Counted from the stretch's first letter, positions 9,206 through 30,964 are shown. The stretch: DNA of 64,000 nt from Azonexus sp. (GCA_041904995.1 JAYRMB010000003.1:86447-150446), one strand, 5' to 3'. Made by a program: numbers and translations. The notes: generated by a model not told the origin, from the letters alone.

Positions 9206-9288
9206 TCGGGGCCCCGGCGGCTTGGTTGGTTGGCGCCTCCAATTCTCCGGGGAAACACCCCGAGTGAACAACCTACAGAGAGATCACA
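8263..9288 (-). mobile_element. IS481-family insertion sequence (1026 bp)
   Basis: TGT...ACA ends with imperfect 24-bp IRs (TGTG...AGGTTGTTCA); 6-bp TSD GCTAGC at 8257-8262 and 9289-9294. Confidence 0.93.
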
Positions 9289-10974: not shown

Positions 10975-10990
10975 TTGCTCAAGACAGAGC

Positions 10991-12804: not shown

Positions 12805-12951
12805 CGAATGAAACCACTGTTTGAAAATTGCTATTTTGACTCCGTATCCATTTTCCGGGATGGAACTACACGCACGGTCAGTTACTTGTTGTTTTCAACT
12901 TGGCGAGGATTTATTCATGAATTTGTCCGATTTCTTCATAGGAGAGATAAA

Positions 12952-13473
12952 TTGAAAAATCAGCATTGTCCGTCTACTCAGCGCAAGTCGCTGTTCATCG
13001 TGTCGAGCCCGGATATCGTCGGAGAGAAACTCAACGATAAGCATGTATTCAATGGCTTCGGCTACTCAGGAGGAAATGAGTCGCCAGAACTCAAATGGAG
13101 TGGAGCACCGATTGACACCAAGAGCTTCGCCATCACTCTCTATGACCCGGATGCTCCAACTGGCAGCGGGTGGTGGCATTGGGTCGTATATAACATTCCG
13201 GCAAATGTTACCTCTCTACCTGGGGGGGCCGGAGCGGATGGCGGAAAATCGCTACCCGAAGGGGCGGCAATGGGGCGCAATGATTTTGGTTTGAAGGCCT
13301 ATGGCGGAGCCTGCCCGCCACCTGGCAAGCAGCACCGCTACCTTTTCACAGTGCACGCTTTGATGATCGAGAAGATCGAGGTACCAGAAGACGCATCGCC
13401 CGCCTTAATCGGTTTCAACCTTACTAGTAACTGCATCGACAAGGCGGTGTTGACCACGATCTATGGATCTTAG
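12952..13473 (+). CDS. YbhB/YbcL (PEBP/RKIP-like) protein
   Basis: GGNESPELKW, SFAITLYDPDAPTGSGWWHW, GACPPPG, HRYLFTVHAL; TTG start inferred from RBS AGGAGA. Confidence 0.85.
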   Translation: MKNQHCPSTQRKSLFIVSSPDIVGEKLNDKHVFNGFGYSGGNESPELKWSGAPIDTKSFAITLYDPDAPTGSGWWHWVVYNIPANVTSLPGGAGADGGKSLPEGAAMGRNDFGLKAYGGACPPPGKQHRYLFTVHALMIEKIEVPEDASPALIGFNLTSNCIDKAVLTTIYGS

Positions 13474-13614
13474 ATGAAGGTGTGTAGAGGATGCATTGCA
13501 CCTAAAGACTTGCTAATAGCGAGCCTATATGTGCACATCTTTAAGGCCGCCATGTATCCGCTTTGCTTACCAAAGAGTCAAAGAAAACACTTTTAGAAAA
13601 CGAAAGTTAATCTT

Positions 13615-15357
13615 ATGTCAATAGATAAATTGATCGATGATCTAGTCACCCAGGCTGGAAAAATGCCAGCATCCATTTCGGTTCAACGTGCACTCACGGT
13701 GGATGGGTGTATCCCAGAGGAGGACAAGCTTGCGCCATTAACGTCAGCAGAACGTTACGCAATCGAATGCATCACACGTAAGAATCACAGCTTCGCGAGC
13801 GACGGTCAAATTAGTTTGGCTTTCCGGCCTCACGGGAGATTGCATGTTCTGCCGAGAGAGGATTTTGAAGTTCACTCTGAATTTCTTACATTAATTGGGC
13901 ATGTTGAATTAACAGAAGCTGAGCTAGTAACTTACTTGGCAACAAAGCAGTCTGCACAGTGTGCGTTGGAAGAAGAACGAACTGTCATTCTAAGTTACTT
14001 GTTCAAGCATGGGTTCGAATGCATATGTGGTGAGTTGTCGCGCTTGTCCGAACATATGGCGCCGTTAATTTATTACGTTGGCGAAATCTGTATTTCTAAT
14101 TTCTATGACATTGGAAAGTCTGATTTCAAGTTGGAAAGTACTTTGGAACATGCCTTGAAAGAGGTTCTCGAGCAGCGTGAAAATGCTCCCATAGAGTTTC
14201 TGACCACCATCTATTGTCTGCATCTGCTTTTGCAGTCTGGAAGCTATACGCGCCTCGAAGAATTGAATTCGAGCCAACTGTCTCGATCCGTTCTAGCGGA
14301 TTACTTTGATGCCAAATACGGCGTCTATCAGAAAGCGGGCGGTGTTTACTCTGATGTGGAGAGCTACTCCTTGTTTTCCTCGTCCTCTCTGGAGGATAAA
14401 GCGGTATTGCTCGCGCATATCCGGAGGAGCATAGAAACTACTAGCCGTTTTACTCGCCATATCAATGGCGTGAATCTGCGCAAGAAGGAAAACATTCTTC
14501 CAATTCCTCCTGCCCAAGTAAATGCTTCACTCCCGTCCCTGCATCGCTCTGCGCACACTATGGCCATGCTACAGCGTTGGGTGGGGCCAAACAGATCTGC
14601 TCAACAAACCTTCCTTCCCAGTTCTTTTGGGGATCTGCTCAAAGAAATAGAAATATTGCTTGCACAAAAAGCTTCGTTTCCGTCTCGACTTGAGTCCTTA
14701 ATTGATTATGTGGTCGCAGAGGCAGTGTGCAGCACACGATCTGATTTCGGCATGACTCGCGGTGCACGTGATTTCCTTAAGTTCGCCACGGCCTTGTGCC
14801 AGGGGCAAACTGAAGTTGCCAGTTCGTGGGGACAGGGAGAGTATTTCTGCCACGTAGTGCCAAACGAAGAAATGAAGGCAGCGTATTCACCAAAGACGCT
14901 CTCAATGATTCTCAATGCAATATCCGGACGCATGCGCTACAACTCTTGGCATTACGCGCCAAGCTATTTCGAAATTGCGAGCATTTCTGCTGACCGAGGC
15001 TGGTTCTATGCCCCACGAATGGCCGATATTGCAGACTGGTGCGACCAGCATCACACCGGCCATATACATGCCTCCGTTCGTTACAGCATCAGATCCCCTC
15101 TGCCCATTTGCGTACGAGATTCCGTGTTCCCGGGATTCATTGATTTGAGGTTAATGCGTCAGTCTGGCGATCCGTATAGCCGAGAGGATTTGGTCACAGC
15201 CATTGCCTACACTGAAGCTCTTCAGTTCATCTATCAGAGCTTGATGAATTTTGTATTGAAAGAAAACAAAAGTTTTGTATTTACTTTTGGCGATAAAAAG
15301 TGGATCGAAAAAGTCTGCTTACCACAGACACCAGAGATGGTTGCCGCAATCGCGTAG
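13615..15357 (+). CDS. 580-aa hypothetical protein, probable enzyme
   Basis: Long open frame inside the operon; motif-like blocks RLEELNSSQ, RHINGVNLRKKE, HVVP, RMRYNSWHY, DQHHTGH, DLRLMR; no family recognised. Confidence 0.85.
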   Translation: MSIDKLIDDLVTQAGKMPASISVQRALTVDGCIPEEDKLAPLTSAERYAIECITRKNHSFASDGQISLAFRPHGRLHVLPREDFEVHSEFLTLIGHVELTEAELVTYLATKQSAQCALEEERTVILSYLFKHGFECICGELSRLSEHMAPLIYYVGEICISNFYDIGKSDFKLESTLEHALKEVLEQRENAPIEFLTTIYCLHLLLQSGSYTRLEELNSSQLSRSVLADYFDAKYGVYQKAGGVYSDVESYSLFSSSSLEDKAVLLAHIRRSIETTSRFTRHINGVNLRKKENILPIPPAQVNASLPSLHRSAHTMAMLQRWVGPNRSAQQTFLPSSFGDLLKEIEILLAQKASFPSRLESLIDYVVAEAVCSTRSDFGMTRGARDFLKFATALCQGQTEVASSWGQGEYFCHVVPNEEMKAAYSPKTLSMILNAISGRMRYNSWHYAPSYFEIASISADRGWFYAPRMADIADWCDQHHTGHIHASVRYSIRSPLPICVRDSVFPGFIDLRLMRQSGDPYSREDLVTAIAYTEALQFIYQSLMNFVLKENKSFVFTFGDKKWIEKVCLPQTPEMVAAIA

Positions 15358-15382
15358 CTTGCACAAATAGGAGGAGAGAGAA

Positions 15383-15718
15383 ATGACTTTCGTCGTTACC
15401 GAAAATTGTATTCGCTGCAAATATATGGACTGCGTTGCGCCTTGTCCCGTGGATTGCTTCTATGAAGGTCCGGAGTTTTTGGTTATCAATCCAGATGAAT
15501 GTATCGATTGCAATGTTTGTGCAGTGGAGTGTCCAGTCGATGCAATTTATCAAGATAAAAATCTGCCGGAAAATCAAAAAGAGTTCATCGAGATAAATAA
15601 ACAACTCTCACAAATATGGCCACGTGTGACTGGTGGTACCTCTGCCCCACTGCCAGATGCTGAACATTGGCGAACGGTGAGTAATAAAAAGGGCTTCCTG
15701 GTTCTACCAGAAAACTGA
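15383..15718 (+). CDS. fdxA: 7Fe (3Fe-4S/4Fe-4S) ferredoxin, FdxA type
   Basis: [29 protein letters not shown]...CIDCNVC...CP; RBS AGGAG. Confidence 0.9.
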
Positions 15719-15853
15719 AATCAGTTTGATCGAGTGCGACCGGCTAGCCTTTCTATTTGCAAGCCTACAAAGTAGATCTTAACAACTTAAGGAGTACCCC
15801 CGGCTCTGCCGGAGGATTGTTACCAACAAACCTGTCACGAGGAGTGAGGCAAA

Positions 15854-16756
15854 TTGAGTGATCTGAAGTTGTCAGAAATAGTGCGACGAAAAATTTCGTC
15901 GGTCAAAGGTATCCAGGAGACTTCGATATCCGCAGAGAGCTCCATTAAGGATGATTTGGGAATTTCGTCGATGGAGTTTATTACCATTTTGACCGAAGTT
16001 GCTGAGGTGCTGCGTATTGATCTGATGAAGTTTTCAGAGAAAGAAATTGTCACCGCTCTTACTGTCGGCGACCTGGAGCGAGTAATTGCCTCGAAGCTTC
16101 CCAAGCAAGGAGAAAAAGTGATCAATTTTAGTTCTGACATCGTATTGAAGGGATGGGGGGTTGTACTTAGGCCTTGGATGGAGCAAGACGTTGGGCAGAT
16201 TGTAGAGTCGGCTACAGACCCGCTTGTTTGGAAATATACGACTGAGGCACTTTCGAACAAGGGCGACGTTGTTAAATATGTTGCGCGGGCTATGGCTGAT
16301 CGAGAGGCGGGTAAGCGCTACTCTTTCGCAATTTGTCTGGAAGGTAGCGATGCAATCGTGGGTAGCTCTAGCTTCGGGAATATGTCTGCAAAAGATGGCC
16401 GACTCGAAATCGGTTGGACTTGGTTAGCCCCGGAATATCACGGGCAAGGACTTAACAACGTCGTCAAGTACCTCATGTTGAAATATGGTTTTGAGGAGCT
16501 CGATTCACACCGTATAGAGTTTAAGACGGACAACGCAAACCCTCGATCGTGCGGAGCGCTTGAAAAGATTGGTGCAAAGCGGGATGGCGTTTTGCGTTCG
16601 CACACCTTAATGCATGATGGGCGCTATCGGGATACGGCGTACTACTCGATACTCAACGAAGAATGGGCTCAGGTGAACGCTGCGCTTTGCCATCGGATAG
16701 CGAGCGTGCTTGAGCAAGGGGCTGATTACTCACAAAACGTATCCATTGCTGGATGA
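15854..16756 (+). CDS. Acyl carrier protein fused to a RimJ/RimL-type GNAT acetyltransferase
   Basis: Residues 1-82 ACP-like (DDLGISSMEF, TVGDL); the rest GNAT (EIGWTWL, HRIEFKTDNAN, GVLRSH, RDTAYYSIL). Confidence 0.82.
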   Translation: MSDLKLSEIVRRKISSVKGIQETSISAESSIKDDLGISSMEFITILTEVAEVLRIDLMKFSEKEIVTALTVGDLERVIASKLPKQGEKVINFSSDIVLKGWGVVLRPWMEQDVGQIVESATDPLVWKYTTEALSNKGDVVKYVARAMADREAGKRYSFAICLEGSDAIVGSSSFGNMSAKDGRLEIGWTWLAPEYHGQGLNNVVKYLMLKYGFEELDSHRIEFKTDNANPRSCGALEKIGAKRDGVLRSHTLMHDGRYRDTAYYSILNEEWAQVNAALCHRIASVLEQGADYSQNVSIAG

Positions 16757-16770
16757 TGCAATGAGAGTGA

Positions 16771-16798
16771 GGGGCGCGAGTATGCATACTCGCGCCCC
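16771..16798. repeat. Perfect 28-bp palindrome
   Basis: GGGGCGCGAGTATGCATACTCGCGCCCC equals its own reverse complement; intergenic. Confidence 0.95.
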
Positions 16799-16830
16799 AT
16801 CAGCGATATTCCTCGTGTGAAGGTTCAATA

Positions 16831-17997
16831 ATGCAAATGCCAGAAAATGCTGTGCGGCTATCGGGTGATCCGATAACCCGCGGGGTCCAGCATGGGCGAA
16901 AGCTGGCCCCAGAAATCAAACGCCTTCTTTCTAATGACTGTGCGCGGATTAACTGCCATCTATCACGCCCTGTTCCGGAGGAGCTGATCTACGCTTATGT
17001 GAGGAAATTCGCTTTTGAAATAGAGAGGGAATTACCTTTGATCGCGGCAGAGATTGAAGGGCTCTCCAAGGGCGCGGAGATTTCTTATGAGCAAGCAGTT
17101 CTCCTCCAGGTCCGCCGTGAAATTTTAATGCACCTGCGTAAAGGTGCTAACAGCGACTGCTCTACATTTTCGCTACCGATAAATAAACGGGTTGTTGCTC
17201 AAACTATCGACCTCAATAGTTCCTTTGCAGAATTTGGCACGGTATTCCAAATTGAACCTTGGTGCGGTAGCCCCGAAATCCTGATGTTCTCTTTCGCTGG
17301 TTTGCTGGGGTACATGGGCATGAATTCCAGTGGCCTAGCTATTGCGATCAATATGGTTTCTTCTGATGATTGGCGTCCAGGCGTTCCTCCCTATCTGTTG
17401 GTGCGCCACTTGCTGGAGCTACACACCGTTGAGGAGTGTCTTGAGGCAATAGCAAATATTCGGCGAAGCAGTTCCCGCAGTTTCACTATCTGCGACTCGA
17501 CGCGCAGTGTTACGGTCGAAATGACCGCTACTTCATTCGCCGTTCTGGAAGGGAAGAAGTTGTTGCACACCAATCATTATTTGTCTCCTGATTTGGCCCC
17601 TTACGACACCATCAATTTTCTAGCTCGGCACTCTTCCATGCAGCGGCTTGCGAAGCTTCATACCTTAACGCAAAACCTTCCAGAAACGCCGGCCGTCAGC
17701 GAGCTATTCAATCTCTTCGCTGATCACGAAAACCATCCTGTCGGATTATGTAGTCACGCCGATGGCGATCTGCGCCGGACGGAAACAGTTGCCACGGCAG
17801 TAATGCATCCGGCGACTGGAACGATGTACGTTCGTAAGGGAATGCCGTGCTGCGGCTGTGAAATTGAAAAGTTCACGATGGCCAGCATGGATGTTAAATC
17901 CGACATGCAGGCTATTTCCGCCGCGACTCATCGAGTAAGTGATAGTCGGCCTGACCTGGTGCCGGGCGTTCAATTCGAAAATATCGGGCAGTTATGA
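16831..17997 (+). CDS. C45-family Ntn hydrolase/acyltransferase (isopenicillin-N acyltransferase-like)
   Basis: RGVQHG, EIEGLSKGA, DCST (Cys110 candidate nucleophile), AQTID, GMNSSGLAIAIN, HTNHY. Confidence 0.85.
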   Translation: MQMPENAVRLSGDPITRGVQHGRKLAPEIKRLLSNDCARINCHLSRPVPEELIYAYVRKFAFEIERELPLIAAEIEGLSKGAEISYEQAVLLQVRREILMHLRKGANSDCSTFSLPINKRVVAQTIDLNSSFAEFGTVFQIEPWCGSPEILMFSFAGLLGYMGMNSSGLAIAINMVSSDDWRPGVPPYLLVRHLLELHTVEECLEAIANIRRSSSRSFTICDSTRSVTVEMTATSFAVLEGKKLLHTNHYLSPDLAPYDTINFLARHSSMQRLAKLHTLTQNLPETPAVSELFNLFADHENHPVGLCSHADGDLRRTETVATAVMHPATGTMYVRKGMPCCGCEIEKFTMASMDVKSDMQAISAATHRVSDSRPDLVPGVQFENIGQL

Positions 17998-18839
17998 ATC
18001 ACAGACTCCAATCTTCAAGTTCTGACGCGACAGAACTCTCCCCCAACGCACTGATGGCCACAGCAAAAGAAATTACCGCTTCGGACGGAGAGAAAATTCG
18101 TTGGGTTGAGTTTGGTTGTGGGAGGCCGCTTGTGGTCTCGCCGGCTCTGGGGACCCCCCTTGCATCGTGGCTGCCCGCGTTATTGGTGTTGTCAGCTGAC
18201 TTCAGAATATTTTTTGCCTTAACCCGAGGAGGCTGCGAGGGGGCCACGCCGAAAGGATTGGCTAATTTAACTGTCCAGCGTCGAGGGGAGGATTTGGCCG
18301 AGCTTATCAACTCGTTAGATCACAGAGAGTACTGCATGGTTGCGCACTCGAGCGGCGTTTCTCCCGCAGTTGTTAGCCTGAAGCAACTAAATACGCCGCC
18401 GTCGCACGTCTGTTTAATCTCCGCCAGATACGGTGCGGGCCAGCCTATTGGCGCCGAAGATTTGCTTCAGCGCGCTAGAAAAGACTCTGGATTCATGAAC
18501 GTTGTTCAGTCGATTGTTGTTAATTACTCTCCGCCGTCCGCTGCCGGCGTAATGCGAGAGCTATTGCGTGATTTTGGCCGGCTTGAAGCATTGCTTCGAG
18601 CCTTTGATCTATCACGTACCTTCAGCTACACCGAACCCTTGTGCGCCGGTATCGCGATGACTTTCGTTATGGCCGAGCATGATCCAGACGACGTGCGAAA
18701 GACGACTCGCCAAATAGTCGATGCCCAATTGGGAGAGCCATGGGCATTGGTTGATGTTCCAGATGTAGGTCACTTTTTTGTACAGGACGATGGCGAGGCG
18801 GCGGCAGCACTTATCGCTACACGCCTTTCTTCGCAATAA
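17994..18839 (+). CDS. Alpha/beta hydrolase (thioesterase-like)
   Basis: Nucleophile elbow AHSSG and C-terminal VGHF; ATGA overlap with the C45 gene. Confidence 0.75.
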   Translation: MNHRLQSSSSDATELSPNALMATAKEITASDGEKIRWVEFGCGRPLVVSPALGTPLASWLPALLVLSADFRIFFALTRGGCEGATPKGLANLTVQRRGEDLAELINSLDHREYCMVAHSSGVSPAVVSLKQLNTPPSHVCLISARYGAGQPIGAEDLLQRARKDSGFMNVVQSIVVNYSPPSAAGVMRELLRDFGRLEALLRAFDLSRTFSYTEPLCAGIAMTFVMAEHDPDDVRKTTRQIVDAQLGEPWALVDVPDVGHFFVQDDGEAAAALIATRLSSQ

Positions 18840-18934
18840 GTACGCCAGCAGAATACTTTGCCAAGATGGCTGATTTGCCAGTGCCAAAATCTGCGGGATG
18901 TTGCCGTGATAAATAAAAATGAGGATGAAAACGT

Positions 18935-19588
18935 ATGGCCCACTTTGAGAACGTTGAAACGATAGCCAAAACACAGTGGTACGCCTCTCCGACAGCAGAA
19001 ACAGCGCACAAAGTTGCGCAATGCGTAGATGACGGCGGTGTCGCGATGTTTCCTGCCGATACGGTTTACGGATTTTTCGGCAATGCGCTCGACCCAAAGT
19101 CGTATGAGCGCGTCTACGACATCAAAAGGCGAGAGCGTCGGAAACCCTTTGTTATATACACGGTTGCATCTCGGGTTGAGCAGGTCGCCTACCTCAACCC
19201 AATGGCGCAGCGATTAATTGAGCGCTTCTGGCCGGATGAGGCACTTGCTCTGGTTCTTCCCAAAAAGGACATCATTTCGAACAGTTTTACTGATGGGAAG
19301 GACACGGTTGCAGTGATGTCGGCTAGCGGAGGCTTTATCTCCGAGGTGATGCGTACCTGCAATTCAATCATGTTTGGAACGACTTGCAATATTTCTGGCA
19401 TGCCAGAAATTACTAAGATCGACGATGCACACGAGTTTAATGAGCAAGTAAATATCGCCGTTGGTGGAGACAGCCTTTTGAGACACAGTGTGCCGTCAAC
19501 CATTGTCGACTGTACTGGTGCTGTGCCAAAAATCCTTCGAGAGTCGGCAATTCCGGCTTCAGTTGTATTTGAAGTGTGTCGCGCTTGA
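18935..19588 (+). CDS. Divergent TsaC/YrdC/Sua5-family adenylating enzyme
   Basis: GGVAMFPADTVYG, IKRRERRKP, GTTCNISG, PSTIVD; stand-alone YrdC domain. Confidence 0.85.
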   Translation: MAHFENVETIAKTQWYASPTAETAHKVAQCVDDGGVAMFPADTVYGFFGNALDPKSYERVYDIKRRERRKPFVIYTVASRVEQVAYLNPMAQRLIERFWPDEALALVLPKKDIISNSFTDGKDTVAVMSASGGFISEVMRTCNSIMFGTTCNISGMPEITKIDDAHEFNEQVNIAVGGDSLLRHSVPSTIVDCTGAVPKILRESAIPASVVFEVCRA

Positions 19589-19702
19589 TGTGGTAGCAAA
19601 GAACACATGTTTTCCCGCAAAAATGTGCGTGAAAATTCCGTGCTCATAAGCGCAAATTTTTATTCGCTTACATCTTGAAATCTATATTGTCGACATACTC
19701 CA

Positions 19703-20869
19703 ATGCCTAGACTATTTCTGCTTGTTCTTTTTCTGACGGTAGCAATCAATACTGGTATGGGAATGATTATTCCCGTCATGCCAACCCTTCTCAAAGAGTT
19801 TGGTTTTAGCACGTTAGGACTATCGCTACCCTTCGCCGCCCTGATCATTGCACGGATAGTTTCAAAGCCTTGGGCGGGTGTCGCACTCAATCGTCTGGGT
19901 GGGCGCTACCTTATGTTGATGGTTTTCGCCGTCTACTCACTTGCGTTTTTCTTGTACCCGGTCTGCCATAGCCAATTTGGCTTTATTTTGCTGAGAGTGC
20001 TGGAGGGCTTTGCCGAAGGCGTGGGTGGAGTCGTCATAACGAATTCAGCAATCGTGATGACGACTGGCCTACGAAACCGTGGGGTTCTTATGGGCTACTT
20101 CTCAGCAGCATTCGGCGTGGGCTTCATTGTCGGACCAATAATCGGTTGGCTAGCACTCGAAACCGTGGGTACCACTGGAATGTTCTTTGTAGGTGGATGT
20201 GTCGGCCTGCTCGGATTGGTTGCAAGTGCTATGTTGCCGCGAAGAAATAATGAGTCGTTGCCGCCAAAAACGAGCCTAAGAGAGCTTGCCAATAATTTGG
20301 GATATCTCATTCCATACATCCCCAGCGTACTTCGAAGAGCGTTGTTTTTCTCTTTCATGATTATTGTGCCGTTATTTGCCACGGGTCGATTAGGGGTTTC
20401 TGCAGAAAAGGTCGGCTTACTGTTTACAGCGTCTGGAATAATCTCAACAGTATGTATGTTTTTTACTGGGAAACTCGCGGATTTCTTTGACCCCAAGAAA
20501 TTAGCGGCTTGGTGCCTCGCAGGGATGGGCATTCTGATCGCCATATGCGGATTCACAAATTCGGTTGAGGCATTTTTGGTTTTCTTTCTTGCGGAAACAC
20601 TACTTTTCGCAATTATGTTGCCTGCGGGTACGAAAGTATTTGCAGTCGCGATTGACAATCATCCTTTGCGCGAGCCAATGGTTGGTTCATTCGGTAGCTT
20701 TACCGAAGTATGCACCGTCATTTTGGCCTTTCTGCTTCCGGCTATTTTAGAAATTAGTATCACCGGCGCCTGGGTCTTTATGGGGGGGCTTTGTGTCGTT
20801 GGTGCTGTGCTATTGCTTCAATGGCAGCCCATTTCCGGGGCCAGGCGCGAAGTCGTAAGCACGAGCTGA
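19703..20869 (+). CDS. MFS transporter (probable exporter)
   Basis: About 12 hydrophobic segments, motif-A-like NRLGGR, LRVLEGFAEG, GFIVGPIIG. Confidence 0.88.
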   Translation: MPRLFLLVLFLTVAINTGMGMIIPVMPTLLKEFGFSTLGLSLPFAALIIARIVSKPWAGVALNRLGGRYLMLMVFAVYSLAFFLYPVCHSQFGFILLRVLEGFAEGVGGVVITNSAIVMTTGLRNRGVLMGYFSAAFGVGFIVGPIIGWLALETVGTTGMFFVGGCVGLLGLVASAMLPRRNNESLPPKTSLRELANNLGYLIPYIPSVLRRALFFSFMIIVPLFATGRLGVSAEKVGLLFTASGIISTVCMFFTGKLADFFDPKKLAAWCLAGMGILIAICGFTNSVEAFLVFFLAETLLFAIMLPAGTKVFAVAIDNHPLREPMVGSFGSFTEVCTVILAFLLPAILEISITGAWVFMGGLCVVGAVLLLQWQPISGARREVVSTS

Positions 20870-20969
20870 ACGACAGCATGCCGATGGCTGAGGTCGACCA
20901 TTGATCGACACAAAAGCACGTCGTAGCAACGCTCAATTTGACTGTTAGAAAATGATCTAAGGTGTGCGA

Positions 20970-22121
20970 ATGCAAATATCCAATGGAAGAAAAACCCCAT
21001 TTCACGATGAGCACGTAAAGGCCGGAGGTAGATTGATGTCTATCTCCGGGTGGGTCAGGCCGCTCCACTATGGTTCGCCTGCAATGGAGATTTCTGCTAT
21101 TCGGAATGCGCTTGGACTTTTTGATCTCCACCCCATGAGCAGGCATATTATCGAAGGCCCCGACGCTCTTGCATTTATGCAGCTCGTAGTAACAAGCGAT
21201 GTAAAACGAGCGATATCCAATTCCGCGGCCCAGTACACATGCTTTTGCGATGAACGGGGCGGAATCATTGATGACGTGTTGATCTTCCCGAGGTCTGCCG
21301 ATGAGTTCCTGATCACTTCCAGTGTTGCGGCTGCAGAAACGCTGGGGGGGTGGATGAGGCGGTGGGTCCAGGAGAGTGGTTTGAATGTTCAATTGCGTGA
21401 TATCAGTGCATTCGAAACCCAATTTGCATTACAAGGGCCGCGCAGCCTGGAACTCGTTCGCAAAGAGTTTGGGGCGAAGGTCGCTGCCTTAAAGCACATG
21501 CAATTTGTCGAGACAGCGCTCAACGGCACTCCTGTGTTCTTGGCCCGCACTGGGTATACGGGAGAGTGTGGCTTTGAGTTTCTTGCTGATGCTCATCAAG
21601 CAGCAGATCTATGGCAGTACTTGCTTGAATCTGGCGCGGAATTCGGTATCGCACCGTTCGGAATCATGGCCGCTCAAACGCTACGCATTGAAAAAGGATA
21701 CGTACTGAATGGTGTAGATATGAGTAGCCAAAACAATCCCTATGAGATTGGCCTTGATTGGACGGTTTGTACGGACAAGGAGGGTTTTCTGGGGAAAGAT
21801 GAACTGTTACGCGCGAAGGCTCAAGGCGTTAAGCGACGCTTTCGCAGATTCTATATCGAGGGAACGGACATAGTACCCAGCGGCACAGAGATCTATGCTC
21901 AAGAGAGCGAAGTCGGTCGAGTTACTAGTTGCTGTAATAGCCCCACGTTAGGTCGTGTCATTGGAATGGGCTTGGTTGATACGTCGATTAGCGGAGACTG
22001 TCCATACTACGTGCGAAGAGGTAATCAGCGATGGCAGGTGTCTTTCATCGAAAGGGCGTTTTATGACCCAGAGGGCACCAGGCTAAAAGCGATACTGCCC
22101 GAAGAGAGTTTGTTGGGCTGA
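20970..22121 (+). CDS. GcvT-family folate-binding aminomethyltransferase-like protein
   Basis: RKTPFHDEH, GLFD, GGIIDD, FALQGP, RTGYTGECGFE, LRIEKGY, GRVTS; no gcvH or gcvP nearby. Confidence 0.9.
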   Translation: MQISNGRKTPFHDEHVKAGGRLMSISGWVRPLHYGSPAMEISAIRNALGLFDLHPMSRHIIEGPDALAFMQLVVTSDVKRAISNSAAQYTCFCDERGGIIDDVLIFPRSADEFLITSSVAAAETLGGWMRRWVQESGLNVQLRDISAFETQFALQGPRSLELVRKEFGAKVAALKHMQFVETALNGTPVFLARTGYTGECGFEFLADAHQAADLWQYLLESGAEFGIAPFGIMAAQTLRIEKGYVLNGVDMSSQNNPYEIGLDWTVCTDKEGFLGKDELLRAKAQGVKRRFRRFYIEGTDIVPSGTEIYAQESEVGRVTSCCNSPTLGRVIGMGLVDTSISGDCPYYVRRGNQRWQVSFIERAFYDPEGTRLKAILPEESLLG

Positions 22122-22124
22122 ACG

Positions 22125-22862
22125 ATGTGCGGAGACAATTTTTCTTATTCCGTTAGACACAATATCTGCATAACGACAAGGGCGATCTGTCTACTGATGG
22201 CATGCGTACTGCCATTTGAATCTTTCGCAGCGGAGGATGGATTTTCGATCGCGAACAGCATCACCCGTCTTCAGATACGTAATACGGTCGACACAAATGA
22301 CATTACTAGCGTTACCGCTTCATCTTTTTTGCAAGCAAAAAACAAGACGTACTTCTTGGGAATTGTCGACTATCAAGTGGATCATGAGCGGCACAACATC
22401 AATGGCCGCATCGAGGGAAATCTGGGCGGTCCATTTCCCGGCAGTCCTTTGGGTTGGGTTGCGCGTGGCAGAGTGTATTACCAGCAAAACTCGGTTGCTG
22501 CCGCGGGCGTACAGCTGAGCTTCAATGAGTTGCCCGAATTGGGGCCCGTCCTTAAAAAGTTAGGTATTACAACCTTCGTACAATTGCTCCGCAATACCAA
22601 TGATCCTTATTTCGGCGATTCCGAGGTTCTTCACTACTACAGTGTCGATATTGTCCCTAAACAATTAGCGCTCCGCGGATACAACGTGTTCAACAGCGCG
22701 GGGAAAGATAAGGCTGTTCGCAACTCTTGGGCAGACCTAATTTATTCGTTAAATGACAGGTTCGACGTTTACTACCGGATAAACGATGTGAGCCGGAAAA
22801 ATGGATATCTCGGCCCACCTGGAGCAACGCAATATTTAGGGTTTCGGATCAACTGGTATTAG
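22125..22862 (+). CDS. Putative exported/outer-membrane beta-barrel protein
   Basis: Signal-like ...ACVLPFESFA, alternating beta-strand pattern, aromatic C-terminus YLGFRINWY. Confidence 0.55.
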   Translation: MCGDNFSYSVRHNICITTRAICLLMACVLPFESFAAEDGFSIANSITRLQIRNTVDTNDITSVTASSFLQAKNKTYFLGIVDYQVDHERHNINGRIEGNLGGPFPGSPLGWVARGRVYYQQNSVAAAGVQLSFNELPELGPVLKKLGITTFVQLLRNTNDPYFGDSEVLHYYSVDIVPKQLALRGYNVFNSAGKDKAVRNSWADLIYSLNDRFDVYYRINDVSRKNGYLGPPGATQYLGFRINWY

Positions 22863-22953
22863 TGCCGACCCCGCTTACGCCTTGACGCTAAACAGCGCAT
22901 CTCTAAAGGTTGTCCAATTCATTCCTTTTAACTTTTTATACCAGGCAATTCAG

Positions 22954-24462
22954 ATGCTAGAGCTCCTTAATTCAGTGGTCGCACGCATGCCCCAAAGTAC
23001 CGGGGTTCTGCACACCATCTCGCAGGGTCATAGACGTTGCTATACCTATCCAGAGGTATTTGAGGATGTCCTCCGTGTACGCTCATACCTTGATTGTCTC
23101 GGCCTCAAGTCTGGATGTTCTATAGGTGTTCGTGCGGACAACAGCTACGAGTGGATACTTCTTGACCTGGCATGCCTTTCCTTGGGCGTTGTCCTTGTAC
23201 CTTTCGATCCGAAAGTTCAGGAGTCGCCAGAGATTCTTATCGAACACTACGGACTGAGTGCGCTATTCCATGATCGACCAGAAGGGGTTGCGCATCGCAA
23301 TTCCATCCAAATATGCACCGTCCTCGAACACCCTAAATCCCTCGACGAAAGTGACGCACCCTTCTTCCAATTTGAGGCAGACTCAATCGTATGCATGAAG
23401 TTTACGTCGGGGACAACCAGTCTACCAAAAGGAATTCCGGCTAAGGCCAAAAACATTGCTGATTGCGTACATGTCATTCAAGATGCATTTCACCATACAG
23501 CCGACGACTTGATTCTTTCGTTTCTCCCGCTCTATCTCTTGCAGCAACGGTACTTCATCTACTCGTCCATTTTGTTCGATATTCCTCTTGTCGTTGTACC
23601 GTACATTCAGTCGTTTTCGGCCATCTCAAATCTACATCCAACGGTTGTGATGGCGGTCCCCCATTTTTTAGACACGCTATTTCAGCGCTATCATCAGGCG
23701 AACACTGCGATAGGAGGTGGCCCGGACTTAAACTCGCAAGTGTCCGAGGCTATCTTTGGCAAGCGGTTGCGGTATCTGTGGACAGGTTCTGCTCCAATAT
23801 CAATTGACCTTCTCCGTCGGTATGAAGCACTGGGAATACCCGTCTATCAAGGCTACGGGACTGCGGAAACCGGCATTCTCACTAAGAATGTATCCGGAAA
23901 TAATCGCTACGGCAGCGTCGGCCGAGTGTTGCCGGGACGAGAGATTAAGATTAGCCAATCTGGAGAGATTCAGGCGCGTGTCCATGCTGAGCTCAACACG
24001 CACTACTCTGCAGGAAGCATATCCAAGCTCGGACAGCGCTTTCTTGATGCCGATGGATTCTTCCCGACGGGTGATCTTGGCTATTTCGATGATGATGGCT
24101 TTCTGTACATCACCGGAAGACTAAAGAACATTATCGTTTTATCGAGTGGTCGGAAAATCAATCCGGAGCCAATCGAAACAGCGATTGCATCTGGTGTCGA
24201 CATCGAGGCCTGTGTTCTCTTCGCGTCACGCGCGGGGCGGCTGACAGCCATTGTCGATTCGGCTCTCTCCGAGCAACTTGTCGCTAAGCGATTAGCAGAG
24301 GTAAACAGTACGCTTGCGGCGGAAGATCATATTGCAAAATTCTTGGTTGTTAAACACGCGTTTTCAAACGAGAGTGGGCTGAGAAATGCGCAAGGGAAGA
24401 TTGTCCGCGATCGCGTATACCAAAATTTCAGAGTACGACTCCAAGAATTGGGCGTGGAATAG
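22954..24462 (+). CDS. AMP-dependent acyl-CoA/acyl-ACP ligase (ANL superfamily)
   Basis: FTSGTTSLPKG, YQGYGTAETG, TGDLG, GRLKNIIVLSSGRKINP, terminal Lys motif QGKIVR. The ORF could start at TTG 22882. Confidence 0.92.
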   Translation: MLELLNSVVARMPQSTGVLHTISQGHRRCYTYPEVFEDVLRVRSYLDCLGLKSGCSIGVRADNSYEWILLDLACLSLGVVLVPFDPKVQESPEILIEHYGLSALFHDRPEGVAHRNSIQICTVLEHPKSLDESDAPFFQFEADSIVCMKFTSGTTSLPKGIPAKAKNIADCVHVIQDAFHHTADDLILSFLPLYLLQQRYFIYSSILFDIPLVVVPYIQSFSAISNLHPTVVMAVPHFLDTLFQRYHQANTAIGGGPDLNSQVSEAIFGKRLRYLWTGSAPISIDLLRRYEALGIPVYQGYGTAETGILTKNVSGNNRYGSVGRVLPGREIKISQSGEIQARVHAELNTHYSAGSISKLGQRFLDADGFFPTGDLGYFDDDGFLYITGRLKNIIVLSSGRKINPEPIETAIASGVDIEACVLFASRAGRLTAIVDSALSEQLVAKRLAEVNSTLAAEDHIAKFLVVKHAFSNESGLRNAQGKIVRDRVYQNFRVRLQELGVE

Positions 24463-24470
24463 CAAACTTC

Positions 24471-25310
24471 ATGCTGTTGCATTCTATAAATTGGCCACCG
24501 TTTAATTCGACGGATTCCGTTAGCGCAACCCGGCCTCAAATCGAATCTGCATTACCAGGACTCGAAGGTTCTTGGTCGATGTCCGTTCATAGCACGCAAC
24601 CAGACGAGCCCGTCTTAGAACTCACAGTACATTTCGTTGAGTTCGAGAGTCGGCTCTCTGTGCTGGGCAATGGTAAAACGTTAGCCGGCTCGTCGTGCCC
24701 AACGCAAATAGGGTTCAGCGCATCTTGTCGCAAAGCGGAGTTTTCATCGGGACGACAGGCCGCGCGATGTGCCCTAACGCAACTCTCCCCCGCGCTGGCC
24801 AGCGTGTTAGTACCTATTGGTGGTGATCGAGAGCCACTTTGGCCGCAAGGCGTAGTGGGAAGTATCACGCATGTCTCGGGCTTGGCGGGAGCTGCGGTAG
24901 GTCTGTCAAATTCGTGGCGCTACCTGGGAATTGATCTTGAGCAGACTGCAGGTGGCAAAGCACAGTCGGCGTTACGCGCTTTTGTGCTCGACAGTGCGGA
25001 ACTATCGTTGCTGCAACGACGCTGCGAAGCGATTGGGCAACTTAACCTGGATACTCATGTTACTCACGTCTTCAGCGCGAAGGAGTGCTTGTACAAAGCA
25101 GCCTTCCCGAGTGTGCGCCGCTTCTTCGGTTTTTCCGAAGCCAGGTTGTGCGAATACGATTTTCTTTCTGCCGATCGTGGACCTGAGGTTCGGCTTGCGC
25201 TTGAAATTACGGATGGGCTTGGCGGCGAATTTGTCGCGGGTAGCCGCTGGTGGGTTGAGGTTTGGCGAATAAAAACCCCCTATACATATCTGTCTGTGTT
25301 GGCGTGCTAG
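24471..25310 (+). CDS. 4'-phosphopantetheinyl transferase (EntD/Sfp type)
   Basis: RKAEFSSGRQAAR, PLWPQGVVGSITH, LGIDLE, FSAKECLYKA. Start uncertain. Confidence 0.9.
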   Translation: MLLHSINWPPFNSTDSVSATRPQIESALPGLEGSWSMSVHSTQPDEPVLELTVHFVEFESRLSVLGNGKTLAGSSCPTQIGFSASCRKAEFSSGRQAARCALTQLSPALASVLVPIGGDREPLWPQGVVGSITHVSGLAGAAVGLSNSWRYLGIDLEQTAGGKAQSALRAFVLDSAELSLLQRRCEAIGQLNLDTHVTHVFSAKECLYKAAFPSVRRFFGFSEARLCEYDFLSADRGPEVRLALEITDGLGGEFVAGSRWWVEVWRIKTPYTYLSVLAC

Positions 25311-25377
25311 CGGCGGAGATAAAACACTGACGTACGTTATTAGAAGACTAAATTCAAACTCAAAGAGGAGGGCACGC

Positions 25378-25530
25378 ATGAAAGCGTGGACCTGTATGTG
25401 TATGGCGGTATCTATGACGAAGTGGCGGACATAGGGGAGGGTATCGACCCTAGTGCGCAACAGGGAGAGATATAAAACATTGACAGTGTCTGAGTGGCGC
25501 TTTTACCAAACCTGATTTGGAAATGACAGG
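25378..25530 (+). pseudogene. Decayed rubredoxin-like gene
   Basis: Strong RBS GAGGAGG, then MKAWTC / frameshift / GIYDE..EGIDP / stop / KPDLEM; resembles the rubredoxin consensus with lost Cys residues. Confidence 0.5.
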
Positions 25531-25599
25531 CGTTTTGACGTGGCTGTTGCAAAGCGCAAGTTCCCACAGTTTTATCTTCAATTGCTTTAAAGGCTAGCT

Positions 25600-26412
25600 A
25601 TGACTTATATCGTACCTTCAGAATTTGCCAAGAAAATGGTGGATGCAGGCGAATCAAAAATCTGCATGTCCACTCGAGATACGTTGATCCGTGCGTACAT
25701 GGCTGGCGCGGTCTTGGCACTATCTGCCGCATTTGCCATATTTCTTAGCGTGCAAACTCAACAACCGTTAATAGGAGCATTGTTCTTTCCAGTCGGTTTC
25801 TCGATGCTCTATTTAATGGGGTTTGATTTACTGACTGGCGTGTTCGTCCTAGCCCCGTTGGCATTGATTGATAGACGGCCCGGTGCAACGATAAAAGGTG
25901 TCCTTCGAAATTGGAGTTTGGTCTTTTTCGGCAATTTTGTGGGCGCCCTCACCGTAGCAATGATGATGGCAGTCGTGTTTACTTATGGCTTCTCCACGTC
26001 TCCTGGTCCAGTTGGAGAAAGAATTGCCAGTATCGCTGAAGGACGGACCCTAGGGTATGCACAGTACGGTTTGGCGGGCTGGATTACCATCTTCTTTCGC
26101 GGCGTGCTGTGCAATTGGATGGTCTCGATGGGAGTCGTAGGGGCCATGATCTCAACAACTGTGGGCGGCATGGTCATCGCAATGTGGATGCCAATTATGT
26201 TGTTCTTCGCAATGGGATTCGAACACTCAGTGGTCAACATGTTCTTATTCCCTTCGGCGATGATTATGGGTGGCAATTTTACAATTGCTGACTATTTTAT
26301 TTGGAACGAAATTCCGACCGTTCTCGGCAATATGCTCGGCGGCTTGGTGTTTACAGGCATGGCACTTTATAGCACCCATGTGAGAACGGGTGCAAAACGC
26401 AGCGTTACCTAA
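25600..26412 (+). CDS. Formate/nitrite transporter (FNT) family channel
   Basis: LLTG, FFGNFVG, GVLCNWMV, GFEHSVVNMF, LGNMLGG. Confidence 0.93.
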   Translation: MTYIVPSEFAKKMVDAGESKICMSTRDTLIRAYMAGAVLALSAAFAIFLSVQTQQPLIGALFFPVGFSMLYLMGFDLLTGVFVLAPLALIDRRPGATIKGVLRNWSLVFFGNFVGALTVAMMMAVVFTYGFSTSPGPVGERIASIAEGRTLGYAQYGLAGWITIFFRGVLCNWMVSMGVVGAMISTTVGGMVIAMWMPIMLFFAMGFEHSVVNMFLFPSAMIMGGNFTIADYFIWNEIPTVLGNMLGGLVFTGMALYSTHVRTGAKRSVT

Positions 26413-26768
26413 TCTCAAAGCCATCAAGGCATGGAGCATGGCTCATTTTTAGTAACTATTCACGCACGACAGGTTGATCGAAATCGAGGCCAAGCTACTA
26501 CCTATAGTAGCTCGAAAATGAACCAATCCTCGAAATTTGTCGTATTTAGCACGGCGTCATGGTGGCGCTGAATGCATTGTTCTACAAGTGGTTGTTTTTC
26601 ACGGTTTTCGGAAAAGCCCCGCTGAATGGATACCATTTTTATATCTGCCAGCCCGGCTTGTTATCAAAGCGGCCGTATCTTTCTGGCGCTTCGTTGCACA
26701 TCCGAATCTAAGTAATACATCACTTTTCTTCTTCACTGCCGCACATGGCACAACCCCAAGGAACCCAC

Positions 26769-28249: not shown

Positions 28250-28356
28250 CGCTGGTCGGCTTGTTGCTTTACTGGTCAGTATGAGAACTCTGGGTACTAT
28301 GAAGTGTGATGGGCTATGCTGTTGAAAGTGTCTGGTCTTCTGAGTGGTAATACGCA
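28250..28356 (-). repeat. Right end of the element with subterminal repeats
   Basis: TGG(T/G)(C/T) cores at 28253, 28273, 28291, 28310 and 28333; terminus rc TGCGTATTACCACTCAGAAGACCA resembles left-end unit CGTATTACCATTCTGACCA (4501-4519). Confidence 0.75.
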
Positions 28357-28361
28357 CCGAC
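28357..28361. repeat. Target-site duplication CCGAC (right copy)
   Basis: Matches 4409-4413. Confidence 0.92.
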
Positions 28362-30855: not shown

Positions 30856-30929
30856 GCGGGCGTCGTATAATGGTAATACCTCAGCTTCCCAAGCTGATGC
30901 CGTGGGTTCGATTCCCATCGCCCGCTCCA
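30856..30929 (+). tRNA. tRNA-Gly (CCC)
   Basis: Cloverleaf: GCGGGCG/CGCCCGC acceptor stem, anticodon arm TCAGC-TTCCCAA-GCTGA, GGTTCGATTC, 3' CCA. Confidence 0.97.
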
Positions 30930-30958
30930 CATCGAATTCAGGCAGGTCGTTGATCTGC
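30924..30958 (+). repeat. att-like direct repeat, copy 1 (tRNA 3' end plus trailer)
   Basis: 33/35 identical to 33304-33338. Confidence 0.85.
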
Positions 30959-30964
30959 AAAAGA

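Follow-up and report, generated by a model that had tools for sequence, protein, structure and literature searches.

A candidate nitrite-dependent hydrazine cluster with its own carrier-protein cassette on a mobile island of Azonexus sp.

What could a bacterium build with a carrier protein, a ligase to load it and a phosphopantetheinyl transferase to activate it, but with no nonribosomal peptide synthetase (NRPS) or polyketide synthase (PKS)? The question is raised by a locus of Azonexus sp. that we analyzed within a stretch of 64,000 nucleotides (GCA_041904995.1 JAYRMB010000003.1:86447-150446; hereafter the window, whose own numbering is used throughout). A reading made from the sequence alone had singled out eleven co-oriented, partly overlapping genes at 13615-25310 as a candidate cluster that matched no characterized pathway, with a ureido, carbamate or nucleotide-mimic product arising from TsaC chemistry. 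Several parts of that description stand. Gene calling gave eleven plus-strand open reading frames (ORFs) in this interval, separated by short gaps or overlapping by 4 nt. Pfam and NCBIfam searches agreed with the calls of a ferredoxin, a GNAT acyltransferase, a C45 acyltransferase, an α/β hydrolase, a YrdC-type protein, a major facilitator superfamily (MFS) transporter, a GcvT-family protein, a ligase and a 4'-phosphopantetheinyl transferase (PPTase), and the genes do form a conserved, self-contained carrier-protein cluster with its own PPTase and neither NRPS nor PKS. The limits and the chemistry, however, come out differently. We place the unit at 10081-27989, with 17 genes in the window, because a PhnCDE-type importer, a PEBP, a formate/nitrite transporter (FNT) and an aminotransferase accompany the core in other lineages. 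The protein that had been called an orphan enzyme resembles the KinJ/FzmP/NegJ family in its residues, its context and its fold matches, its ferredoxin is of the corresponding type, and the GNAT, the ANL ligase, the acyl carrier protein (ACP) and the C45 protein are homologs of the hydrazinoacetate (HAA) cassette; the central chemistry would thus be the formation of an N-N bond from nitrite. We consider it likely that the genes at 10081-27989 of this island form a biosynthetic cluster whose product is a small metabolite with an N-N bond at its core.

The 580-residue enzyme and its ferredoxin

The first of the eleven genes (13615-15357, plus strand) encodes a protein of 580 amino acids for which no Pfam or NCBIfam family was found and a sequence-profile search of the PDB gave nothing useful; none of its 61 relatives in a large protein collection bears a name. 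The profile searches being empty, its identification relies on gene neighborhoods and on the literature. In tblastn comparisons it is 25-31% identical to proteins encoded at about 40 actinomycete loci (E 1e-35 to 1e-52), whose conserved neighbors are Lyase_1/ADSL_C, small GNAT, amidase, Gln-synt_C, MFS and SARP genes. Genes of the fzmNOPQR/kinJKLMN-type cassette (Lyase_1/ADSL, GNAT, amidase or C45, glutamine synthetase-like), the "hydrazino cassette" of fosfazinomycin and kinamycin biosynthesis, surround the homologs in 20-31 of 41 actinomycete loci. On a plasmid of Streptomyces sp. NBC_01244 (L067), for instance, the neighbors are a ferredoxin, a hypothetical protein, glutamine synthetase (GS), adenylosuccinate lyase (ADSL), a GNAT and a C45 protein, with CreD/CreE-like genes close by. 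To our knowledge, no Gram-negative member of the KinJ family, which was recognized only in 2025, has been characterized.

KinJ, FzmP and FsnU2 are reported to be a new type of heme b enzyme with a dedicated ferredoxin, in which nitrite is reduced by four electrons and coupled to L-aspartate to give hydrazinosuccinate; the conversion of aspartate and nitrite is described for KinIJ and for FsnU2/V (Kenney et al., bioRxiv 10.1101/2025.05.27.656397; Shi et al., PMC12408219). NegJ is reported to form hydrazinoacetate from glycine and nitrite; the literature on these synthases also includes Wang, Wei & Ryan (Nat Chem Biol 2025, cited in PMC13274452). In an alignment of the window protein with 30 actinomycete homologs, residues C412, R439, M440, R441, N443, W445, H446, H483, R493 and R512 are conserved in at least 30 of the 31 sequences, and the same active-site positions are invariant or nearly so in 17 proteobacterial members. 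The key residues given for KinJ are C468, R497, M498, N501, H504, H541 (the axial ligand), R551 and R570 (bioRxiv 10.1101/2025.05.27.656397). Their spacing matches that of the window enzyme, with an offset of 58 throughout and a shift of two residues at the cysteine; the comparison was made with the published KinJ numbering and with cassette-embedded homologs, not with the named KinJ, FzmP and NegJ sequences. The likeness to KinJ/KinI, FzmP, FsnU2/FsnV and NegJ thus includes the size of about 580 amino acids without a Pfam domain and the positions of Cys, R-M-R-x-N-x-W-H, His, Arg and Arg at the published spacing. It also extends to a GAF-like C-terminal fold with a distant resemblance to DosT. 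When an AlphaFold2 (AF2) model of the protein (pLDDT 85) was compared with the PDB using Foldseek, the top matches were the GAF-A domains of DosS and DosT, followed by GAF domains of bacteriophytochrome and PixJ; all are weak (E 0.04-0.4), and a weak GAF-type structural likeness to DosT/PixJ is reported for KinJ itself (bioRxiv 10.1101/2025.05.27.656397).

The gene 25 nt downstream (15383-15718, plus strand) encodes a 7Fe (3Fe-4S + 4Fe-4S) ferredoxin of the FdxA type (Fer4 + DUF3470; FdxA_Protbact 151.8 bits, cut-off 135). The members of the KinJ family have in common an adjacent low-potential ferredoxin, and a 7Fe FdxA-type protein is the one reported for the Burkholderia KinJ clusters (bioRxiv 10.1101/2025.05.27.656397). 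A ferredoxin gene likewise adjoins the KinJ-like gene at loci L002-L006, L008, L009, L057, L061 and L066, and lies a few genes apart from it in L058 and L059. Judged by its sequence and position, the window ferredoxin is the predicted electron-donor partner of the heme enzyme, and the 580-residue protein appears to be a member of the KinJ/FzmP/NegJ family of heme hydrazine synthases. By analogy with these, the predicted reaction joins nitrite and an α-amino acid, with four electrons, into an α-hydrazino acid. Like most members, that of the window is found without CreDE genes. It differs from the family in its Gram-negative sludge host and in its position on an island flanked by insertion sequences (ISs), and from the KinJ/FzmP cassettes in the absence from the window of GS-like, ADSL-like and amidase genes, so that the hydrazine would not be handed on through glutamylhydrazine.

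A scan of genomes with an alignment of the family revealed the KinJ-like/ferredoxin pair in Trinickia, Limnobacter, Ramlibacter and other Proteobacteria. Its partners there include a fusion of a heme-oxygenase-like diiron oxidase (HDO) and a cupin, of SznF-like architecture, a small Acetyltransf_10 GNAT and a flavoprotein of about 630 amino acids (NAD_binding_9); in Limnobacter, a B12-radical-SAM enzyme and an FMO are the neighbors. Smaller modules also occur. On contig L066 (8725-12076), which is plasmid-like and carries ParA/ParB-KorB/KorA genes, the MFS transporter is the sole assignable partner of the pair, beside a LytTR two-component system and amid regulators and unassigned ORFs, and in L058/L059 the module comprises only four genes, for ferredoxin, GcvT, MFS transporter and KinJ-like enzyme (L058 6922-11680). 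Such minimal modules hint that a hydrazino acid may be exported as it is, without further elaboration. Since the partners vary among Proteobacteria, the pair would be a mobile, modular unit of N-N bond formation. The contexts at L003-L006, L009 and L057 (Trinickia, Limnobacter, Ramlibacter and uncultured Proteobacteria) are other cryptic ones. In a metagenome-assembled genome (MAG) of Sideroxyarcus (L065 3443-5914), genes for an HDO (258 aa), a Cupin_2 protein (155 aa) and a LuxR solo are divergent from the KinJ-like gene; this HDO and cupin could oxidize the hydrazine further in that organism.

The carrier-protein cassette

If the pair supplies a hydrazino acid, what would become of it? The gene at 15854-16756 (plus strand) encodes a carrier protein (residues ~1-85) fused to a GNAT domain (residues ~100-280; Acetyltransf_3, E 1e-23). 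The ACP of the sequence-only reading is therefore present, with its DLGxxS motif, but as this N-terminal domain and not as the separate gene that had been described. Although the PP-binding match of Pfam lies below threshold (E 0.009), a DLG(I/V/F)xS motif aligns with the free-standing carriers of related clusters and places the phosphopantetheine site at Ser39; the region is 29% identical to a PP-binding protein of Ferruginibacter (L064; E 3e-6), and on metagenome contig L061 the ACP (99 aa) and the GNAT are separate genes. The GNAT domain is 40-41% identical to the GNATs of the cassettes of S. yokosukanensis and Ferruginibacter (L063 and L064) and 39% to that of the Streptomyces plasmid (L067), and it is predicted to N-acylate the distal nitrogen of the hydrazine. 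GNATs 64-75% identical to this domain were also seen in Stenoxybacter acetivorans (L060 10001-10606) and in a Spirochaetales MAG (L062 10001-10594), as stand-alone genes in unrelated housekeeping contexts; this identity is unexpectedly high for a different role.

The next gene (16831-17997, plus strand) encodes a self-processing Ntn acyltransferase/hydrolase of family C45 (NF040521, C45/AAT, 223 bits), whose nucleophile is Cys110, an invariant residue that matches Cys103 in an alignment with isopenicillin-N acyltransferase (PDB 2X1D). Some 15 close relatives (59-99% identity) belong to the same type of cluster, and a next tier (36-50%) is found in Bacteroidota, Firmicutes and actinomycetes. 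The loci of two relatives of this tier were examined (P0279 and P0198, one of them from S. yokosukanensis and the other from Ferruginibacter): the C45 protein is 50% identical to that of Ferruginibacter and 40% to that of S. yokosukanensis, and both lie within canonical HAA cassettes. From its sequence we predict that it strips an N-acyl protecting group on the carrier, like DobA. At L067 (13755-15403), on the Streptomyces sp. NBC_01244 plasmid, a C45 gene stands beside a GNAT gene in place of the usual FzmO-type amidase, which suggests that GNAT and C45 constitute a general protect/deprotect pair for hydrazines.

The ANL (acyl-AMP-forming) ligase (22882-24462, plus strand; likely start at 22954) combines AMP-binding with AMP-binding_C_3 and is 33-35% identical over its full length to the ligases of the L063 and L064 cassettes, which have the same Pfam architecture. 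Its predicted role, like that of Tri29/DobC, is to attach the N-acyl-hydrazino acid to the carrier. The possibility that it performs a CreM-type diazotization was set aside, given its full-length homology to loading ligases and the presence of a carrier protein and a PPTase. The latter (24471-25310, plus strand; 4PPT_N + ACPS) is of the Sfp/EntD type, its best NCBIfam models being PptT, Npt and EntD, each below cut-off.

The two reference loci have the content expected of HAA cassettes. That of S. yokosukanensis (L063) encodes a PPTase, an ACAD, an ACP, a Lys N-oxygenase, a DAO, a cupin-MetRS, an ANL ligase, an Acetyltransf_3 GNAT and a C45 protein, in agreement with the published tri (Tri26-31, Tri22), aza and dob gene lists, and that of Ferruginibacter (L064) an NRPS, an ANL ligase, an ACP, a GNAT, a Lys N-oxygenase, a C45 protein, a MetRS-like protein, a cupin and a DAO. 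The four window proteins are 29-50% identical to theirs. The cassettes for triacsin (Tri29/30/31), azaserine (AzaB/C/Q), N-nitroglycine and 4-diazo-3-oxobutanoate (DobB/C/Q/M/A) have in common with the window an Acetyltransf_3 GNAT, an ANL ligase with AMP-binding_C_3, a small carrier and a C45 protein (bioRxiv 10.1101/2021.05.12.443849; PMC13061610; PMC13274452), and also a dedicated PPTase and an MFS exporter; an α/β hydrolase is found in the nng pathway too. In the dob pathway, the GNAT DobB succinylates HAA, the adenylase DobC loads DobQ, the FAD enzyme DobM oxidizes the product and the C45 protein DobA removes the succinyl group; Tri31 and DobB acylate with succinyl-CoA (bioRxiv 10.1101/2021.05.12.443849; PMC13061610).

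The window departs from these systems in several respects. Their carrier is free-standing, whereas that of the window is fused to the GNAT; they pass the unit to an NRPS or PKS, which the window lacks; and the YrdC, GcvT, PhnCDE, PEBP and FNT genes are additions of the window. Their HAA comes from a lysine N-oxygenase, a cupin-MetRS and an oxidase, whereas the window would use nitrite through the KinJ-type enzyme: the Lys N6-oxygenase, cupin-MetRS and FAD oxidase proteins of L063 had no tblastn match in the window, and their role in HAA supply is presumably taken by the KinJ-like/ferredoxin pair. Finally, in the HAA cassettes a FAD acyl-ACP dehydrogenase (Tri22/DobM) makes the hydrazone, and the island has neither this enzyme nor a replacement for it; as to an oxidase that might replace this ACAD, the HDO and cupin pair of Sideroxyarcus has no counterpart in the window.

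A comparable exchange has been foreseen. The text of Kenney et al. describes a "Cluster E" in which a KinJ homolog occurs with Tri31/AzaB/NngQ-like and Tri29/AzaC/NngO-like genes, and considers that KinJ-type and lysine-type sources may be interchanged (bioRxiv 10.1101/2025.05.27.656397). The idea is the same as here, in that a KinJ-type enzyme, instead of the AzaEFG-type machinery, provides a carrier cassette with its hydrazino acid. However, the "Cluster E" genes are reported to exceed 55% identity to Tri/Aza/Nng, whereas identities between the window proteins and the cassette homologs are 33-41%, and Burkholderia is the only proteobacterial genus named in that text, as far as it was covered (bioRxiv 10.1101/2025.05.27.656397). 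In the main text, where searched, the terms "aminomethyltransferase" and "Marinobacter" are absent; YrdC, PhnCDE and FNT were not among the terms, nor were the figures covered. The literature searched contained no description of the present gene set. On these comparisons, the cluster appears to be a new variant, Gram-negative and IS-borne, that joins a KinJ-type hydrazine synthase with an HAA-type carrier cassette minus its oxidase.

Conservation of the gene set and its additional members

A search for conserved synteny elsewhere found the gene set in Sideroxyarcus, Marinobacter and metagenome contigs, as the sequence-only reading had anticipated for a genuine cluster. It recurs at 57-87% amino-acid identity and in four different block orders, and is therefore not a chance grouping. 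The proteins of the window are 73-87% identical to those of the Sideroxyarcus MAG (L065), 57-77% to those of Marinobacter sp. LM1 (L056) and 59-80% to those of metagenome contig L061, and the metagenome fragments L068-L070 also carry genes of the cluster. The PhnCDE-type ABC importer is attached in every lineage with enough sequence, and the PEBP, the FNT channel and the AspC/TyrB aminotransferase wherever the sequence of the lineages extends to them. In Marinobacter, transposases and a mer operon with merB follow the cluster.

The changing order of the blocks could also mean that the 17 genes are two or three independent modules joined by mobile elements, namely PhnCDE/PEBP uptake, KinJ-ferredoxin-FNT and a carrier module with an unrelated substrate. 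The blocks [SBP-ABC-perm(-PEBP)], [KinJ-Fdx(-FNT)] and [ACP-GNAT...PPT] do swap their relative order between lineages, KinJ-Fdx occurs without the other genes in many genomes, and the GNAT relatives of Stenoxybacter and the spirochaete, at 64-75% identity, lie in unrelated contexts. However, in none of the four lineages has the reshuffling separated the blocks, as would be expected from selection on the whole set, and the carrier module is specifically homologous to cassettes for hydrazino acids, the predicted supply of the neighboring module. We thus regard independent modules as improbable and favor a single N-N-forming cluster.

The cluster is rare. Among 185,579 species-representative genomes scanned with the alignment of the 580-residue family, only one carries it in full, and relatives of the 245-residue protein described below were found on three short contigs among 241 M metagenome records, which confirm only the local gene order. 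No nucleotide match to the cluster DNA was found among the plasmids of PLSDB. An identical copy is present in one activated-sludge run, and close copies (about 71% of sampled 31-mers in common) in many wastewater, sludge and groundwater metagenomes; it is found almost exclusively in metagenomes of sludge, wastewater, groundwater and marine sites. In three metatranscriptome runs from sludge there are contigs of 150-275 nt at least 99% identical to several of the genes (heme enzyme, ferredoxin, GNAT, hydrolase, YrdC, GcvT/245-aa, ligase and aminotransferase), weak evidence that the cluster is expressed in sludge, as carry-over of DNA could explain these fragments.

The importer at the left end consists of a PhnD-family periplasmic substrate-binding protein, of the type for phosphonate, phosphite or oxyanions (10081-10974, plus strand; Phosphonate-bd E 7e-58), a PhnC-type ABC ATPase (10991-11734, plus strand; ABC_phnC 287.9 bits, cut-off 266) and a PhnE-type permease (11731-12804, plus strand, overlapping the ATPase gene by 4 nt; PhnE 233.9 bits, cut-off 216.7). 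The first scores 170 bits with TIGR01098 (cut-off 112) but stays under the PhnD equivalog cut-off; its orthologs lie beside the cluster in Sideroxyarcus (84%), Marinobacter (76%) and L061 (78%), and the ATPase is also kept with the cluster. A PEBP of the YbhB-YbcL family follows (12808-13473, plus strand; PBP E 3e-38; TIGR00481); its true start is probably later than that of the ORF, and in Marinobacter and L061 the genes of orthologs of 176-180 amino acids immediately precede the KinJ-like gene.

These genes raise the question of whether the island is catabolic or protective instead, serving nitrite detoxification or the scavenging of nitrogen and phosphorus, with phosphonates or oxyanions imported by PhnCDE and one-carbon (C1) units handled by GcvT, and selected in nitrite-rich wastewater. 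PhnC and PhnE do pass NCBIfam equivalog cut-offs, GcvT and the AspC-type aminotransferase are families of primary metabolism, the cluster is nearly confined to the environments listed above, and it is IS-flanked, like many catabolic islands. However, Pfam and NCBIfam searches of the island found no C-P lyase, PhnY/Z, PtxD or other enzyme consuming phosphonate or phosphite. Moreover, the PPTase, the carrier, the ANL ligase and the protect/deprotect pair of GNAT and C45 are hallmarks of assembly, not of breakdown; the conserved set includes a drug-efflux-type MFS transporter and an envelope protein; and the Sideroxyarcus version stands beside the LuxR solo and the HDO and cupin pair, typical of secondary metabolism. 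A catabolic or protective role is hence unlikely in our judgment, and biosynthesis of an N-N compound is the reading that we follow. Of two narrower ideas, a phosphonate natural product was rejected because there is no PEP mutase, and phosphonate catabolism because there is no C-P lyase or PhnY/Z.

Between the C45 gene and the ligase lie five further genes, all on the plus strand. The α/β-fold hydrolase (17994-18839; Abhydrolase_6 E 5e-9), whose gene overlaps the C45 gene by 4 nt (17994-17997), has an HSSG nucleophile elbow, is 69-80% conserved in L061 and L065 and may be the off-loading thioesterase or acyltransferase. The MFS transporter (19703-20869; MFS_1 E 1e-36) is a probable exporter, its best NCBIfam models being drug-efflux families, all sub-cut-off. 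The GcvT-family aminomethyltransferase paralog (20964-22121, or from 21036 in an alternative gene call; GCV_T 243 bits) is folate-binding and stays just below both PRK00389 (288.5 bits, cut-off 300) and TIGR00528 (226.5, cut-off 235.85), and the island contains neither gcvH nor gcvP. Because GcvT accompanies the KinJ-like enzyme, the ferredoxin and the MFS transporter in the four-gene modules L058/L059, it would belong with the formation of the hydrazine and not with the carrier cassette. A conserved protein of 221-245 amino acids (22125-22862; 245 in the window) matches no Pfam or NCBIfam family and is 60-73% conserved in four lineages; it is possibly an outer-membrane β-barrel, a label based only on a hydrophobic, signal-peptide-like N-terminus and a C-terminal ...NWY, and its single-sequence AF2 model is uninformative (pLDDT 32).

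The remaining one is a stand-alone member of the YrdC/TsaC family (18935-19588; Sua5/YciO/YrdC, Pfam E 5e-33) with no Kae1 or Sua5 C-terminal domain. Aligned with Pyrococcus abyssi Sua5 (6F87), it keeps the TVYG, K-x-R, (S/T)xN-x-SG and ST(V/I)(I/V)D motifs, and it is 75-80% conserved in L061, L065 and L069. Its scores miss the equivalog cut-offs (TIGR00057 110.3 bits against 123.2; PRK10634 47 against 175), and Pfam and NCBIfam searches found no Kae1-type gene in the island. With fold and motifs kept, cut-offs missed and no Kae1 partner, its sequence marks it as a paralog of the family rather than the housekeeping TsaC/Sua5. It has the YrdC fold and the nucleotide and substrate motifs in common with TsaC/Sua5 and with the YrdC-like domain of TobZ/HypF carbamoyltransferases, so that formation of an adenylate from ATP and a carboxy or carbamoyl species would be expected. 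It differs from TsaC/Sua5 in being a second, island-borne copy within a secondary-metabolite operon. At one end of the S. yokosukanensis locus (L063 1-154), a TobZ/NodU-type carbamoyltransferase (Carbam_trans_N/C) adjoins the PPTase, ACAD and ACP genes on the same strand, a possible parallel to the YrdC paralog of the window.

Should the YrdC paralog then be seen as the center of the pathway, as first proposed? An amino acid would be N-carboxy-adenylated and captured to give an acylated ureido compound, a carbamate or an aminoacyl-nucleotide mimic, with the 580-residue protein and the ferredoxin as accessory redox proteins and no N-N bond formed. The motifs just described and the presence of the paralog in every full version of the cluster are consistent with this, as is the general knowledge that Acetyltransf_3 GNATs include acetylators of aminoacyl-nucleotides, and the carbamoyltransferase of the S. 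yokosukanensis HAA cluster indicates that carbamoylation can co-occur. However, the 580-residue protein has the full KinJ active-site signature together with its obligatory ferredoxin, and the GNAT, ANL ligase, ACP and C45 protein all match the HAA cassette. The KinJ-like enzyme with its ferredoxin is the ancestral and most widely shared module, and L066, L058 and L059 have no YrdC or carrier genes, whereas the YrdC paralog is confined to this type of cluster and has no Kae1-type transferase to consume a carbamoyl-adenylate. A YrdC-centered pathway is thus very improbable, the least probable of the explanations weighed here; within an N-N-forming cluster, ureido or carbazate tailoring by the paralog is possible, but it would not be the organizing logic.

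Downstream of the PPTase, the FNT-family channel (25600-26412, plus strand; Form_Nir_trans E 1e-63) directly follows KinJ-Fdx in Marinobacter and L061, and the PPTase in L070. The last gene of the unit (26745-27989, plus strand) encodes an AspC/TyrB-type class I aminotransferase (PRK09257 569.7 bits, cut-off 377); it has an ortholog of 80% identity beside the PPTase in L061 and one of 93% in L070.

A proposed pathway, its island and its significance

We propose a pathway in which the steps of the heme enzyme, the GNAT, the ANL ligase with the PPTase, and the C45 protein are taken from homology to characterized enzymes, and the remaining ones we infer. Environmental nitrite would enter through the FNT channel, and the AspC-like aminotransferase would provide the amino acid precursor. 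Nitrite bound at the heme would be reduced by four electrons delivered with the help of the 7Fe ferredoxin and coupled to the α-amine of the amino acid, yielding an α-hydrazino acid, whose reactive distal nitrogen would be acylated by the GNAT domain, as Tri31 and DobB do with succinyl-CoA. The ANL ligase would adenylate the N-acyl-hydrazino acid and load it on the fused carrier domain, converted to its holo form by the PPTase of the cluster; the C45 Ntn-hydrolase would then deprotect the carrier-bound intermediate by removing its acyl group, in the manner of DobA, and the α/β hydrolase would release the product. The YrdC paralog, with ATP and bicarbonate, might N-carboxy-adenylate a hydrazine or amine nitrogen, leading to a carbazate, a semicarbazide or ring closure, and the GcvT paralog might carry out a folate-dependent C1 step or serve the metabolism of glycine and folate. 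Export of the product would fall to the MFS transporter and the 245-residue envelope protein, and the PhnCDE-like importer would take up an oxyanion precursor.

We suggest the environment as the source of nitrite because the cluster contains no CreD/CreE nitrite-generating genes, the FNT gene comes after KinJ-Fdx in two lineages, and a KinJ-type pathway, that of negamycin, can run on nitrite supplied from outside. As a rough estimate, glycine (giving hydrazinoacetic acid) is slightly favored as the substrate of the heme enzyme, aspartate is a less probable choice and any other amino acid the least probable. Glycine is favored by the HAA-type ANL ligase and ACP, by a slightly higher similarity to HAA than to Asp-type plasmid cassettes and by the recurrent GcvT, and aspartate by the AspC-type aminotransferase; the actinomycete homologs are all equally distant, so sequence does not separate glycine from aspartate specificity. 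Without a FAD acyl-ACP dehydrogenase, the product is probably not oxidized as far as a hydrazone or a diazo compound and remains at the level of a hydrazine or hydrazide.

Several points weigh against this pathway. The heme enzyme is only 25-31% identical to KinJ homologs of the characterized type, and the named KinJ, FzmP and NegJ entered the comparison through published numbering only; product, cofactors and activities alike rest wholly on homology and context. No FAD acyl-ACP dehydrogenase (Tri22/DobM, ACAD-type) was found at 4-34 kb, the only tblastn match of the L063 ACAD in the window being a host gene of 27% identity at 56.7-57.5 kb, and the absence of the FAD oxidase, present in every characterized HAA cassette, implies that the pathway is not a simple copy of these. 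The substrate pointers conflict, GcvT and the HAA-type ANL ligase and ACP indicating glycine and the AspC-type aminotransferase aspartate. The FNT protein scores higher with FocA (formate) than with NirC (nitrite) models, both below cut-off; the annotation of PhnCDE implies phosphonate or phosphite, for which the pathway has no use; and the pathway leaves the roles of YrdC, GcvT, PEBP, PhnCDE and the 245-residue protein unexplained.

The genes lie on a low-GC island of about 4.4-28.4 kb (GC 0.44-0.58 in most bins, 0.67 in one 600-bp bin; host about 0.65). Pfam searches identify in its left flank an IS21 IstB gene (4647-5405, minus strand), an IstA-like transposase (5415-7376, minus strand), an HTH protein (7539-8012, plus strand) and an IS481 transposase (8258-9271, minus strand). 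The cluster is thus mobile, borne on an IS-flanked island in a genome from activated sludge. At the right edge, an HD-GYP gene (28344-29234) without the DUF3391 N-terminal domain starts where GC rises from 0.53 to 0.65, and insertion of the island may have truncated it; this HD-domain ORF was considered as a PhnZ and rejected, being the truncated host gene. Its product and a second HD-GYP (HD_5) paralog at 2292-3497 are 42% identical. Farther right (30856-33091), a tRNA-Gly(CCC) gene (30856-30929) is followed by a second low-GC islet with a candidate two-gene anti-phage system, composed of HEC-01B (31044-31673, minus strand; PADLOC E 2e-15) and HEC-01A, an AAA_21/AAA_15 ATPase (31682-33091, minus strand; PADLOC E 6e-100).

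Enzymatic formation of N-N bonds is rare, and its products, such as azaserine, negamycin, kinamycin, triacsin and fosfazinomycin, are potent antibiotics, antitumor agents or enzyme inhibitors. Here a nitrite-dependent hydrazine synthase is paired with a carrier cassette normally supplied by a completely different hydrazine-forming route, in a compact cluster that spans about 18 kb, has no NRPS or PKS genes and is hence tractable. We know of no precedent for YrdC or GcvT paralogs in hydrazine or N-N chemistry. Working out the cluster would yield a new N-N natural product, would test the interchangeability of KinJ-type and lysine-dependent hydrazine sources and would assign a function to a stand-alone YrdC paralog. 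We can also put forward, as a tentative and rather doubtful extension, that the TsaC-like enzyme forms a carbazoyl-adenylate from the hydrazine nitrogen with bicarbonate and ATP and that the GcvT-like protein adds or removes a folate C1 unit, the product being a carbazate, a semicarbazide or a small N-N heterocycle of a new class derived from environmental nitrite. If true, a free YrdC-family enzyme and a T-protein paralog would each take part in natural-product biosynthesis for the first time. As the island is IS-borne and spreads among Proteobacteria of sludge, groundwater and marine settings, it would in that case also be an unrecognized biological sink in which nitrite is turned into organic N-N compounds, in nitrogen-cycling systems both engineered and natural. 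Study of the cluster would show whether, in wastewater rich in nitrite, bacteria channel this inorganic nitrogen into organic hydrazines.

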